Shown piece by piece: positions 29,158 to 50,070 of a DNA stretch of 64,000 nucleotides. Below the pieces are notes generated by a model. The model saw only the letters and a list, made by a program, of their open reading frames with translations. It was not told the origin of the DNA and made no database searches. Made by a program: the position numbers and the translations under genes. Every line of letters begins with the position of its first letter. Within the stretch, counting starts at the first letter, position 1. The stretch is from an uncultured Candidatus Saccharibacteria bacterium (lineage in GTDB: Bacteria; Patescibacteriota; Minisyncoccia; Phycocordibacterales; UBA2100): NCBI GenBank assembly GCA_964512835.1, contig CAZELA010000002.1:28603-92602 (forward strand). The letters are read 5' to 3'.

Positions 29158-29197
29158 AGCCCCGAAGCGATAGCTTCGGGGCTGACTATTTTTTGTG
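29158..29197. terminator. Bidirectional terminator shared by the small membrane gene and ssrA
   Basis: gccccgaagcgatagcttcggggc followed by tgactatttttt. Confidence 0.6.
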
Positions 29198-29585
29198 GAG
29201 GTGCGGGGAATTGAACCCCGGTCCAGAAAATGATTCACAGTCGTATCTACACGGCGTAGGGCATTCGATGTGTTTGAGTGCCGCGCGTTAAGAATGCACA
29301 AGATCGCGCAACACCGGACTCTCTTTCTTTAGGTCTGTGGTCGGAGTGAACCAAAGACCGGATCTGATGTTTATGACGTTCGGTAGCGCGCTATCAGATA
29401 CGCAACGCGCGAACGGTCGCCTGGCTTACGCGAGGACGAAGCCGAGATCCTTCATCTGAATCGGTGAAAGAGTCCCCCCTGCAGTTTTGTTTGCAGTTAG
29501 AATTTGGAACTTTTTAGGAAGTGTCCCACTTCCGCCATGCACAAAAGTAAACTGAATTTCCTGTCGAAGCCGATCACCCCCCACC
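29194..29585 (-). ncRNA. ssrA: tmRNA (SsrA)
   Basis: The reverse complement begins GGGGGGTGATCGGCTTCGACAGG and ends GGACCGGGGTTCAATTCCCCGCACCTCCACA, a tRNA-like 3' end with no encoded CCA. The internal tag reading frame ends ...QMKDLGFVLA-TAA. Adjacent to smpB. Confidence 0.8.
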
Positions 29586-38957: not shown

Positions 38958-38985
38958 TTGTCGGAACCAAACAACGGCCTATAAT
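38958..38985 (+). promoter_or_regulatory. Putative sigma70-type promoter of tRNA-Ile
   Basis: TTGTCG, then a 16-bp spacer, then TATAAT about 9 bp before the tRNA 5' end. Confidence 0.4.
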
Positions 38986-38994
38986 GCGCCCACA

Positions 38995-39068
38995 CCGCCC
39001 TTAGCTCAGTTGGTTAGAGCATCGAGCTTATACCTCGAGGGTCCTTGGTTCGAGTCCAAGAGGGCGGA
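38995..39068 (+). tRNA. tRNA-Ile with anticodon UAU, no encoded CCA
   Basis: Cloverleaf by eye. Acceptor CCGCCCT/AGGGCGG, D-arm GCTCAGTTGGTTAGAGC, anticodon loop CTTATAC, T-arm CTTGGTTCGAGTCCAAG. Confidence 0.65.
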
Positions 39069-39106
39069 CATAAAATTGTTCCAATTTTCTGTCCGCCCTC
39101 TTGGAC
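39054..39106. repeat. Perfect 17-bp inverted repeat (extended hairpin) that includes the tRNA-Ile T-stem and acceptor 3' strand
   Basis: gtccaagagggcggaca ... tgtccgccctcttggac separated by a 19-nt loop that is itself palindromic (aaaattg..caatttt). Confidence 0.7.
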
Positions 39107-39131
39107 GGGAAAGGGGTCGGGAAAACACCTG

Positions 39132-39173
39132 TTTTCCCGTGGAGGAAGGTTGGGAAAACCGTGGGTTTCCCAG
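39132..39173. repeat. 42-bp direct repeat, copy 1
   Basis: ttttcccgtggaggaaggttgggaaaaccgtgggtttcccag. Confidence 0.7.
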
Positions 39174-39195
39174 GAGACCTAGTGGGCGGACCTGA

Positions 39196-39225
39196 TTCAA
39201 AAACGGCACCTGCGTGCCGTTTTTG
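39196..39225. terminator. Bidirectional intrinsic terminator inside a longer 22-bp imperfect palindrome
   Basis: aaaaacggcacctgcgtgccgttttt. Confidence 0.6.
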
Positions 39226-39329
39226 ATTACAGGTCCGAGCCGGAGCGATGTCGCCAAAGCTTTGGCGACCGCGAGGCGGGGGCTGCGACCGAGGTGAGCG
39301 GCGGCGAGCCGAGAGTTGTTGCCGACAAA

Positions 39330-39371
39330 TTTTCCCGTGGAGGAGGGTTGGGAAAATCGTGGGTTTCCCAG
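39330..39371. repeat. 42-bp direct repeat, copy 2 (two mismatches)
   Basis: ttttcccgtggaggagggttgggaaaatcgtgggtttcccag. Confidence 0.7.
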
Positions 39372-39482
39372 TACTCCTCGTAAGCCGACAAATCTCGCGC
39401 AGACATTCTGGATTGACGCAGCCCCATCGCTCTTGTATTAAAGCAATGGTTACCTGCAATAGTCGCTCAAAGGAGAAGGACA

Positions 39483-40121
39483 ATGAAGGGCTTTTTCGAC
39501 CGCTTCAGTCGCACTGCACCACCGCCTGCACCGCCGCCGATTCCGGCCGCGACACCGGCCGAGAACGACTTCGCCGCCGCGTGGCAGCGGTTCCTCGGTT
39601 TCGGCGTCGACCGCGATGACCTGTTGCAGGTCCTCGAGGAGTCGCCGTTTGAGCCTCGGCTGCGCGAATATGCGGCGCGCACGCTGATCGACCGCTATCG
39701 CGATGATCTCACGATCGCAGAGCTCAATACGATCATCGTGTACACGTCGTACGCCTCGGTGAGTGTCGAAGCCGGCAATCTTGTCATGGAGCGTGCGACA
39801 AGCAAGGACGACCTCGGTCAGGTGATGCTCAGCGTGAAGTCCCTGCGGGTGCGGGCCGCGCACATTGTGCTCGCATCGAACCCCGGGACGCATGAGCTCG
39901 TGCGGTGTCTCGATATTCCCGAAGTCGCCGACGAAGCGCTGGAGCGCTTGCTCTCGCCGAAAACGCCTCGTTCAACACTCTTGCATCTGATCCGGTTTCA
40001 GAGACGCTTTGCGCCGGCGATCCGAGAGTATCTCGAGGCGAACGGCCGGCGCGCGGACTTTACGCCGCATATGGCCGGGGCACTGAAACTGCTCGCCGAA
40101 TCGCCGCACACGGACTACTAG
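39483..40121 (+). CDS. Hypothetical protein with a Pro/Ala-rich N-terminus
   Basis: A GGAGAAGGA ribosome-binding site upstream. No family recognised. Confidence 0.35.
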   Translation: MKGFFDRFSRTAPPPAPPPIPAATPAENDFAAAWQRFLGFGVDRDDLLQVLEESPFEPRLREYAARTLIDRYRDDLTIAELNTIIVYTSYASVSVEAGNLVMERATSKDDLGQVMLSVKSLRVRAAHIVLASNPGTHELVRCLDIPEVADEALERLLSPKTPRSTLLHLIRFQRRFAPAIREYLEANGRRADFTPHMAGALKLLAESPHTDY

Positions 40122-49648: not shown

Positions 49649-49735
49649 GGAGAGGTGCCAGAGCGGTCGAATGGAGCACACTGCTAATGTGTTGAGCGGG
49701 AAACCGTTCCGAGGGTTCGAATCCCTCCCTCTCCG
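49649..49735 (+). tRNA. tRNA-Ser (anticodon GCU), long variable arm, no encoded CCA
   Basis: GGAGAGG acceptor, 3-bp D-stem, anticodon loop CTGCTAA, variable arm TGAGCGGGAAACCGTTCC, T-arm GAGGGTTCGAATCCCTC. Confidence 0.8.
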
Positions 49736-49747
49736 CAATTACAAAAA

Positions 49748-49774
49748 CGCGCCCGCTAGGGCGCTTTTTTGTTT
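49748..49774 (+). terminator. Intrinsic terminator after tRNA-Ser
   Basis: gcgcccgctagggcgctttttt. Confidence 0.6.
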
Positions 49775-49775
49775 G

Positions 49776-50070
49776 CGGAGAGGAGGAGAGTGCGGGGCAC
49801 TCTCCGTGAGGGATTCGAAAGGTTTTGCGCGGGGCCCGTTAGTAAACGGGCTCGCAAAACCAGGCCCGAGAAACTTCTTGAGCGGCGGCGAAAGAAGTGT
49901 TCTTGGGCGCATCCCTCCCTCTGATTCGCAGGCGAGCGTTCCCGTGACCACGCGGGGATGGGCGAGCGTGGTCAGGAGGAGAAAAAGTGTGGCGACACTT
50001 TTTTGAGCGCTTGACCGAATCCCTCCCTCCGTACGGCGAAAGAAATGTTCTTGGGCGAATCCCTCTATTT
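49776..50070. repeat. Cluster of degenerate partial copies of the tRNA-Ser 5' and 3' ends, plus a 39-bp direct repeat. Interpreted as putative att-site or integration scars.
   Basis: ggagagg...gagggattcgaaagg (49780..49825). catccctccctctgattcg (49917..49935). cgaatccctccctccgtacgg (50008..50028). ggcgaaagaa(g/a)tgttcttgggcg(c/a)atccctc occurs twice (49887..49925 and 50033..50068). Confidence 0.6.

Follow-up and report, generated by a model that had tools for sequence, protein, structure and literature searches.

The region behind a tRNA-Ile(UAU) gene in a 64,000-nt stretch of a metagenome-derived contig (CAZELA010000002.1, positions 28,603–92,602, deposited as uncultured Candidatus Saccharibacteria bacterium; hereafter the window) was found to contain a small structured element. 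This element belongs to an uncatalogued, conserved and foldable non-coding family located behind tRNA and transfer-messenger RNA (tmRNA) genes of Paceibacteria, within the candidate phyla radiation (CPR). Its members are 100–150 nt long, occur in multiple copies and contain no open reading frame (ORF); in kind, the element is a gene-end-associated non-coding repeat. All results were obtained by comparative sequence analysis of metagenome assemblies. The original prediction for this region had suggested, among other things, that a small mobile element had inserted at the tRNA and left its remains. This was the closest guess. The region consists of members of a large conserved family, which is associated with tRNAs of every specificity.

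In several relatives, the tRNA-Ile gene was directly followed by a homologue of window positions 39184–39334. Twelve such homologous post-tRNA sequences, i.e., the window copy aligned with 11 relatives, yielded a consensus with 27 pairs, of which 18 showed compensatory changes, and a covariance model (model R1) was built from it. The window copy matched this model with 98.2 bits (E 1.5e-24; E-values are rough due to a shortened calibration), and further copies were detected behind tmRNA and tRNA-Ser genes within the tRNA-Ile loci. A core-only motif, which is blind to the flanks and samples only the subfamily bearing the chosen motif, was scanned in metagenomes and found at at least 120 loci. 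Among the 124 matches listed, 76 were located 37–334 nt downstream of a tRNA or tmRNA gene on the same strand, with at least 35 anticodons represented. The remaining matches were mostly found at contig edges, behind tmRNAs missed by ARAGORN, after protein genes, or within duplicated pieces of 5S rRNA (in antisense) or tRNA 5′ halves, and three were spurious matches in coding sequence (L141, L221, and L237). Besides tRNA and tmRNA, a few other gene ends thus carry the element.

The Rfam scan that had been suggested for the region (gathering and E-value scans of the window, E up to 10) showed nothing but tRNA and chance microRNA-like matches on a long hairpin, and seven canonical copies matched no family of Rfam 15 at E up to 1. 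Among 2.9 million viral contigs, no match was found for the core motif or for the direct repeat R described below. All-vs-all clustering of 3,475 ORFs from 239 loci showed no recurrent linked protein, the largest cluster covering 6 of 120 loci. The core carried no phylogenetic signal by contig or by tRNA type. In the literature, no description was found of structured RNAs or elements downstream of tRNA genes in Patescibacteria.

Conserved core and arms copied from the neighboring gene

The conserved core consists of H1, a hairpin often with a CTGC loop, followed by the helices P2 and P3. In the family, P2 reads CGGAG...GAG-N′-CGGGG around a GGA/GA internal loop and a variable hairpin, and P3 reads UCGCRNA...UNYGUGAC around an AU-rich hairpin. 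Among 113 further copies aligned to the model, 96.9% of the model-pair cells were paired, a figure somewhat inflated by the model-fitted alignment, compared to 78% in shuffles and 30–50% with slid partners; double-sided changes numbered 444 compared to 125 in shuffles. The slid-partner controls and the diversity of pair types were robust to alignment fitting. Helix 1 (P1) showed compensatory changes in 6/6 pairs, and the central pair N/N′ of P2 was CG in 46 copies, GC in 29, AU in 20, and UA in 6. In P3, a G·U pair was found in 105 of 108 copies at one position and in 46 of 108 at another, where GU, GC, and AU occurred. Since these conserved G·U pairs would be C·A on the opposite strand, they point to a structure that is read in single-stranded form from the tRNA-sense strand, as RNA or as single-stranded DNA. 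The core helices covary strongly, and the structure is predicted to act on this strand. The element was always oriented along the strand of the preceding gene.

The full layout has the order T (gene end), often a terminator-like hairpin, T′a, H1, T′b, P2, P3 ending in GTGAC, and T2. Here, T′a is the complement of the acceptor 3′ strand, the discriminator and C74, T′b is the complement of the T-loop and the T-stem 3′ strand (...GGGATTCGAA), and T2 is a sense copy of the gene end from the T-loop on (CGAATCC...). Copies with this layout follow, among others, tRNA-Met, -His, -Lys, -Glu, -Thr, and -Gly. Minimal copies, designated type B and including that of the window, read T-H1-T′(4–5 nt)-P2-P3-GTGAC and then repeat the final 3 nt of the tRNA. 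Type A accounted for 43 of 75 copies and type B for 10, the rest being mostly type A with a mismatch.

The outer arms vary in sequence from copy to copy; they are exact antisense (T′) and sense (T2) copies of the 3′ end of the preceding gene. An antisense copy of at least 8 nt of the own tRNA was detected in 46 of 76 cases, compared to 8.7% with mismatched tRNAs, and a sense copy of at least 8 nt likewise in 46 of 76, compared to 3.8% with mismatched tRNAs (at least 15 nt in 26). Where the acceptor stem contains a G·U pair or a mismatch, T′ complemented the 3′ strand in six cases and was never solely a copy of the 5′ strand. This complementarity at non-Watson–Crick acceptor pairs indicates that the arm is templated on the 3′ end of the gene. 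A tRNA pseudogene with deleted arms was also considered as a source and rejected, because T′ complements the 3′ strand including the T-loop and the discriminator and is not a 5′-strand copy. The complementarity of T and T′ allows a long hairpin with the end of the gene, and that of T′ and T2 closes the core into a tRNA-like multi-branch fold.

The intact window copy (39184–39334, + strand) is a canonical type B copy. In its helix P1/H1 (39188–39236, +), GGAC of a sense copy of the tRNA end pairs with GTCC and encloses a terminator-like stem (39197–39226), the loop of which (C-CTGC-G, 39209–39214) recurs as CTGC in the relatives. P2 (39237–39282, +) is formed by GAG-C-CGG (N = 39240) and GAG-G-CGGGG (N′ = 39276) and encloses the GGA/GA internal loop and a variable hairpin tipped by a palindrome at 39250–39269. 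P3 (39282–39326, +) pairs GCUGCGAC with GUUGUUGCC around an inner hairpin and is followed by GAC, the same 3 nt with which the tRNA-end copy closes; GCCGAC at 39321–39326 is the type B end of this copy. The intact copy follows the tRNA-end copy and not the tRNA itself, and the same order, with a further copy behind T2, was found in L202.

Two features noticed earlier as isolated symmetries can be placed in this predicted structure. A bidirectional terminator within a palindrome had been claimed, and TCAAAAACGGCAC-CTGC-GTGCCGTTTTTGA was indeed found at 39197–39226, 13/13 paired and inside an outer GGACCTG/CAGGTCC pairing; it corresponds to the predicted helix H1/P1 of the intact copy, with the C-CTGC-G loop of the family. 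The terminator-like stem at 39197–39232 (CGGCAC-CTGC-GTGCCG followed by TTTTTG) was not listed by a consensus scan, presumably because its T run pairs with an upstream A run. The additional perfect palindrome of 20 nt (GTCGCCAAAG/CTTTGGCGAC, 39250–39269) was also present, and is predicted to be the variable tip of P2.

A divergent type A copy was detected at 49737–49925 (+) behind tRNA-Ser(GCU) (49649–49736). It contains a terminator hairpin, T′a (49776–49787), H1 (49788–49806), T′b (49807–49820; GTGAGGGATTCGAA), a two-hairpin core and T2 (49909–49922), with the core loop GAGCGGCGGCGA as in canonical copies and the sense copy CATCCCTCCCTCT. As predicted by the family scheme, it folds into a closing helix, H1, a T-like helix and two hairpins (−84.6 kcal/mol, z −6.9). 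This copy scored only 8.9 bits against model R1, which indicates that the family is larger than the model detects. The window also contains a tmRNA gene (29195–29581, − strand) with a long tag, ANKTAGGTLSPIQMKDLGFVLA, and an ordinary terminator behind it; no element copy was detected in this flank. In other Paceibacteria (L013, L190, L208, and L245), the tmRNA is followed by the element.

The locus behind tRNA-Ile(UAU)

The last 17 nt of the tRNA end (39054–39070, GTCCAAGAGGGCGGACA) were confirmed to be exactly inverted at 39090–39106, and the arms widen to 30 nt with 90% complementarity (39049–39078/39082–39111). The resulting long hairpin (39049–39111, +) consists of T, i.e., the 3′ end of the tRNA, a small apical hairpin and T′. 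Folded in silico as RNA, the tRNA and hairpin together (38995–39112) reached −59.8 kcal/mol (z −6.8), and in the minimum-energy structure the 17-bp hairpin displaced the acceptor and T arms. The competing hairpin proposed earlier is therefore real but not special to this tRNA; it reflects a general property of the family, since the exact antisense copy of the preceding gene's 3′ end in the element arms explains the inverted tRNA end.

The two direct repeats claimed for the region were also found, with 39132–39173 and 39330–39371 lying 198 bp apart and being identical at 40 of 42 positions. No such match occurred in 100 shuffles, and the similarity widens to 60 nt at 85%. Repeat R1 covers 39132–39191 (+), and R2, followed by GCCGACAAAT, which repeats 39321–39330, covers 39330–39393 (+); a homologous tail is located behind the element in L256. 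RNA folding, which had been suggested as a check, gave a z-score of −6.1 for the stretch 39069–39400. Hairpins of the type GGGAAAAY-N4-GKTTTCCC were found three times in the region and nowhere else in the 64 kb, where 0.03 were expected. As neither shuffles nor expectation yielded such numbers of repeats and palindromes, the density of symmetric elements, described previously as atypical for a spacer, is real and far above chance.

The repeats R1 and R2 (42–60 nt) are a local duplication around the element. The 42-nt repeat was rejected as the signature of a dispersed family, an idea for which a genome-wide search had been proposed, as it occurs just twice in the window, and the hairpin motif was confined to the locus of this lineage, with one unrelated match among 249 loci. 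A template/variable repeat pair of a diversity-generating retroelement was rejected as well, since the differences between R1 and R2 (A>G, C>T) and those between the topA-like duplicates described below are not adenine-specific.

Between the tRNA and the intact copy lies a 122-nt stretch (39070–39191, +) that is missing from L256 and L082. It contains T′ (39090–39106), GGGGTCG followed by a hairpin at 39119–39138, a second hairpin at 39152–39171, and a degenerate sense copy of the tRNA end (GAGACCTAGTGGGCGGAC, 39174–39191, 15/18 identical; compare GAGTCCAAGAGGGCGGAC in the tRNA). This stretch probably represents a decayed older copy of the element.

Downstream of R2, a promoter-like site (TTGACG-17-TATTAA, 39413–39441, +) precedes a 212-aa gene with its ATG at 39483; the site was read by eye and was not called by the promoter scan. 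A similar TTGAC...TATTAA motif was found upstream of the homologous gene in L256 and L251. A regulatory RNA acting on this gene, another of the earlier suggestions, is unlikely, because the gene keeps its own promoter-like site downstream of the element both here and in relatives. It is highly improbable, to the point that we give it hardly any weight, that the GGGAAAAC-N4-GTTTTCCC palindromes are operators, or a leader, of the 212-aa gene and bind a dimeric regulator. Three similar 20-bp palindromes are clustered here, with none elsewhere in the window, and one of them lies about 45 nt upstream of the promoter-like site. However, apart from one unrelated locus, these hairpins are restricted to this lineage and are missing from L256 and L251, which retain the gene and its promoter-like motif. 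Besides, the interval from the tRNA to the intact element contains two of the three, and the assembly L004 has lost one while its promoter is untouched.

The tRNA itself (38995–39068, +; C1:G72, A73, and C74, CCA not encoded) was identified as tRNA-Ile by ARAGORN (38995–39069), with the anticodon tat at position 35 as claimed earlier, and by Rfam (69.4 bits at 38995–39068). Together with a promoter-like site (TTGTCG-16-TATAAT, 38958–38985, +) ending 10 nt before its start, this predicts a genuine gene with its own promoter. AUA is regularly used in the 47 window ORFs (148 of 17,191 codons, i.e., 8.6 per 1000 and 14% of the Ile codons). Within the 64-kb window, neither an ORF with an SGGxDS PP-loop nor a CAU tRNA was found.

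Relatives of the tRNA were retrieved by an exact 25-mer of the anticodon arm, which was present in at least 119 species representatives. Nearly all were labeled Patescibacteria/Paceibacteria (Kaiser-, Zambryski-, Nomura-, and Taylorbacteria, and others), and a few carried a Gammaproteobacteria label. This distribution indicates that the UAU tRNA is the ordinary AUA decoder of Paceibacteria. Of the earlier suggestion that a UAU anticodon would imply a TilS-independent decoding of AUA, the anticodon and the use of AUA were confirmed, and neither is peculiar to this genome. Reading of AUA without TilS, by an unmodified UAU tRNA, is known from Mycoplasma mobile and has been inferred for Bifidobacterium and Neorickettsia (PMC3575796). 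Common to these organisms and the present clade are the genomic TAT anticodon in tRNA-Ile and the regular use of AUA; here, in contrast, it is the rule for a whole CPR class, and the gene mostly begins with the unusual C1:G72 pair. No report on lysidine in Patescibacteria or on decoding by a UAU tRNA in this phylum was found in the literature. The tRNA part is a new, clade-wide instance of an already known decoding strategy, and CPR bacteria would be a natural test case for the distinction of AUA and AUG without lysidine, as the UAU tRNA appears standard in a very large uncultured class.

Among the tRNA-Ile(UAU) genes of the clade, the C1:G72 start was found in 82 of 111, A73-C74 in all 111, and an encoded CCA in 15. 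Among bacterial elongator tRNAs, a C1:G72 pair is unusual, and it may be relevant to identity or RNase P processing. Four loci (L024, L035, L045, and L065) contain duplicates of the tRNA-Ile(UAU) 3′ half that begin in the anticodon loop and lie a few dozen nt downstream of the intact gene. Such duplicates are the classical trace left by integrase-type recombination; in L024, duplicate and functional gene have different acceptor types. Other genes in the window neighborhood, where the G+C content is about 56%, encode an HD-domain protein, a NUDIX protein, a PMT-type glycosyltransferase, malic enzyme, cupredoxin/PG-binding proteins, and SmpB, besides the tmRNA.

Gain, loss, and possible modes of action

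The element was present behind roughly 17 of the 119 listed tRNA-Ile(UAU) genes (about 15%). In L256, the downstream protein of which shows 73% amino acid identity, it is located directly after the tRNA and is followed by ...GGGTTTCCCAGATCTCCTAGTGGTCGAAC and the promoter-like motif, whereas L251 (68% amino acid identity) lacks the element and contains only a small hairpin and a T′ remnant. Compared to both, the window has the 122 extra nt at 39070–39191 and an intact element after the tRNA-end copy. Tandem arrays, including identical tandem duplicates, were also found.

In one (L004) of six near-identical assemblies, precisely the 198 bp between R1 and R2 are missing, including the intact copy (L004:3910–4278 compared to window 39174–39371). 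R1 and R2 differ at 2 of 42 positions, whereas over about 400 nt the flanks in L004 are identical to those in the other assemblies. The duplication is therefore older than the split from L004, and an ancestral empty site was rejected. The L004 sequence would reflect a recent deletion or a collapse of the repeat during assembly.

Several further arrangements were observed around copies or at this locus. In one strain-level assembly (L003:1–4360), five small unannotated ORFs and FGE-sulfatase and thymidylate-kinase-like genes replace the PMT and malic enzyme genes beyond the HD-domain gene, which represents a rearrangement or insertion adjoining the tRNA locus. Five assemblies of a relative (L251–L255) end 35 or about 150 nt upstream of the homologue of the 212-aa gene, inside the tRNA/element region, which suggests repeat-induced assembly breaks. 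In L157, L180, and L218 (about 150 nt around the core), the element follows a topA-like gene and is itself followed by a second copy of the last ~70 nt of this gene. The duplicate encodes the same zinc-finger peptide and differs from the functional copy mostly at synonymous sites, which points to a displaced 3′ end from another lineage. The copies in L143, L153, L203, and L134 and in L170, L183, L189, and L223 are located either in partial antisense 5S rRNA fragments or in duplicated tRNA 5′ fragments. The latter hold the element at the position of the D-loop or the anticodon loop and precede the intact gene by a few dozen nt. In practice, the element breaks assemblies, makes deletion alleles, and can mislead the annotation of tRNAs and att sites in metagenome-assembled genomes of CPR bacteria.

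With moderate confidence, we consider the element to be non-autonomous, located at the ends of highly conserved genes, propagated or rearranged by recombination, and active as a folded single strand. The folded tRNA-sense strand, as RNA or single-stranded DNA, would be the active form. Pairing of T′ with the gene end would position the element there, and joining at a fixed 3′ boundary directly after GTGAC would place it beside a duplicated gene end, so that the host gene is proposed to stay intact. The window repeats created by the element would themselves be substrates for recombination. The arms could equally arise by template-switch extension of two hairpins, in which copying of T across the terminator would yield T′ and copying of T′ across the core would yield T2. 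Signs of DNA turnover are the patchy presence at tRNA-Ile, the differences among relatives, the tandem arrays, the copies in gene fragments, the topA-like duplicate and the candidate deletion allele in L004. If mobile, the element would have a way to settle at the most conserved genes of tiny genomes although no enzyme gene is linked to it.

A number of points weigh against a recombination-propagated element. No transposase, integrase or reverse transcriptase was found tied to it, and both its mobility and the writing of T′ and T2 are deduced from sequence comparison and not from observed events. The similarity between copies had a median of 0.66 within contigs compared to 0.63 between contigs, and copies behind the same anticodon were no more alike than others; there is thus no trace of recent transposition bursts, unlike in active miniature inverted-repeat transposable elements (MITEs) or repetitive extragenic palindromic (REP) elements. 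The long persistence, a core apparently under purifying selection and the very small genomes would fit a host function at least as well. When only perfect stems are counted, a strict criterion, the interval from the tRNA to the core is free of terminator-like hairpins in 45 of 76 copies, and these copies are probably co-transcribed with the tRNA. At the window locus, the assignment of 39070–39191 as a decayed copy is based on the arms and one motif, with model R1 matching the first hairpin only (9 bits), and the deletion in L004 could be a collapse of the repeat during assembly.

Several of these observations would be expected from the main rival explanation, which we regard as tentative: a cis-acting RNA module of the host, co-transcribed as a 3′ trailer of tRNA and tmRNA operons. 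It would adopt a tRNA-like multi-branch fold (T′a:T2 as "acceptor" helix, T′b:T2 as "T" helix, H1, P2, and P3), with T/T′ and T′/T2 as alternative pairings, and would direct 3′-end formation or trailer removal (e.g., by RNase P, Z or III) or shield against exonucleases. The element always has the strand and position given by the gene upstream, the core shows strong purifying selection, covariation and conserved G·U pairs, the copies are old without intragenomic bursts, and the predicted folds are very stable. By the strict criterion, a terminator-like hairpin before the core is missing in 45 of 76 copies, and several copies have one after T2; in L184 and L151, the element follows the last tRNA of a cluster. 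Most tRNA genes of the clade do not encode CCA, so that 3′ processing is needed. A processing signal of this kind would be a phylum-specific way to make tRNA 3′ ends in organisms with minimal RNase sets. Against such a module speak its presence behind only about 15% of the tRNA-Ile(UAU) genes, its gain or loss among relatives and its absence behind the window tmRNA. Besides, a strong terminator-like hairpin separates tRNA and core in 31 of 76 copies, some copies are located in gene fragments, behind protein genes or on the antisense strand of 5S fragments, decay of the arms is frequent, and an exact antisense copy would misfold the tRNA.

The match of T′ to its neighbor raises another explanation, i.e., an intron- or bridge-like mobile RNA or single-stranded DNA in which T′ is the guide and a core of about 75 nt joins strands directly after GTGAC or recruits an enzyme in trans. 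T′ always matches the neighboring gene, down to 4–5 nt (GTCC, GTGC, GTGA, and GTGG for genes ending in GGAC, GCAC, TCAC, and CCAC, respectively). The 3′ boundary is fixed and T2 begins right behind it, both the window and L202 have a further element behind a copy of a tRNA end (T2), and two related lineages bear the element after different sites ending in GGGCGGAC. On the other hand, no ribozyme family match, no linked enzyme gene and no recent copies were found, reverse splicing would not duplicate the flanks, and the complementarity could arise by selection for a hairpin where it is short and by template-switch extension of a palindrome where it is long. We therefore judge a guide-bearing mobile nucleic acid of this type unlikely. 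We would be only slightly less sceptical of the wider proposal of a new class of such nucleic acids, with a core of 75–100 nt, no protein gene of its own, T′ targeting to the 3′ ends of conserved genes (mainly tRNA and tmRNA genes), and joining at the invariant GTGAC end. If the element were guide-bearing, target specificity would be written in the element, as in group II introns and bridge RNAs, in a far smaller and unrelated scaffold.

The direct repeats at the gene ends also resemble the traces of integrated islands. Accordingly, the copies could be leftovers in which attL/attR repeats of the tRNA 3′ end surround the remnant of an attP arm after deletion of the cargo, similar to cis-mobilizable elements (CIMEs). 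Many copies are indeed flanked by direct repeats of the tRNA or tmRNA 3′ part from the T-loop on, about 1.1 kb including a 124-aa ORF lies between the tRNA and the element with its repeat in L120, and duplicated tRNA 3′ halves occur in L024, L045, and L065. Nevertheless, we find this origin very improbable: at least 35 different tRNAs and the non-tRNA sites would need dozens of integrase specificities sharing one arm, no recurrent integrase was found nearby, the core shows RNA-type covariation with strand-specific G·U pairs, and an internal antisense copy of the target is foreign to att sites.

Comparison with known systems

For a conserved, covarying core enclosed by antisense and sense copies that are tailored to the neighbor's end, as predicted here, no counterpart is known to us or was found. 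Among known repeats, REP elements and bacterial interspersed mosaic elements (BIMEs), ERIC, Correia/NEMIS, RUP, BOX, and other MITEs share with the element that they are short, ORF-less, multi-copy, hairpin-rich, co-oriented downstream of genes, and prone to duplication and deletion. They differ in that the element has a covarying three-helix core with fixed G·U pairs, arms copied from the neighboring gene, and as much divergence within as between genomes. Like MITEs, it occurs in multiple copies without an ORF, but the outer arms differ from copy to copy and match the neighboring gene instead of forming conserved terminal inverted repeats, and in place of a target-site duplication of fixed size the flanking repeats measure 3 nt (type B), 10–21 nt (type A) or about 70 nt (topA-like). 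REP/BIME sequences are imperfect palindromes of 20–40 nt with a conserved GTAG or CGTC head and near-identical copies in each genome, compared to a core of 75–100 nt with three helices and a within-contig identity of 0.66 for the element.

Tyrosine-integrase islands in tRNA and tmRNA genes have in common with the element a duplicated tRNA 3′ part, a start in the T-loop or anticodon loop, an intact tRNA, and the tmRNA as a target. A direct repeat of the tRNA 3′ part at both ends was found in 46 of 76 copies. In contrast to islands, which carry an integrase and use one target tRNA per lineage, the inserts here are 100–250 nt long, contain neither an integrase nor any other ORF, are associated with dozens of tRNAs (at least 35 anticodons), and include an internal antisense copy of the target and a structured core.

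Short target complementarity is shared with group IIC introns and with bridge RNAs of the IS110 family, and group IIC introns likewise insert right behind terminator hairpins and are oriented like the gene upstream. Group II introns have a known catalytic core and a length of at least 600 nt, bridge RNAs adjoin their recombinase gene, and neither duplicates the target end. For the element, no Rfam match to a catalytic core was found and the upstream tRNA is complete; no recurring ORF was detected near the copies, where a DEDD recombinase would be the expected neighbor of an IS110 bridge RNA. Group II introns have been reported to be absent from Patescibacteria (PMC13011429), and the work on tRNA introns of this phylum concerns group I introns located in the anticodon loop. 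With MALAT1 mascRNA-type signals and integron attC sites, the element shares a tRNA-like or hairpin fold that is located downstream of a gene and is read as a strand-specific structure, a resemblance that implies no homology.

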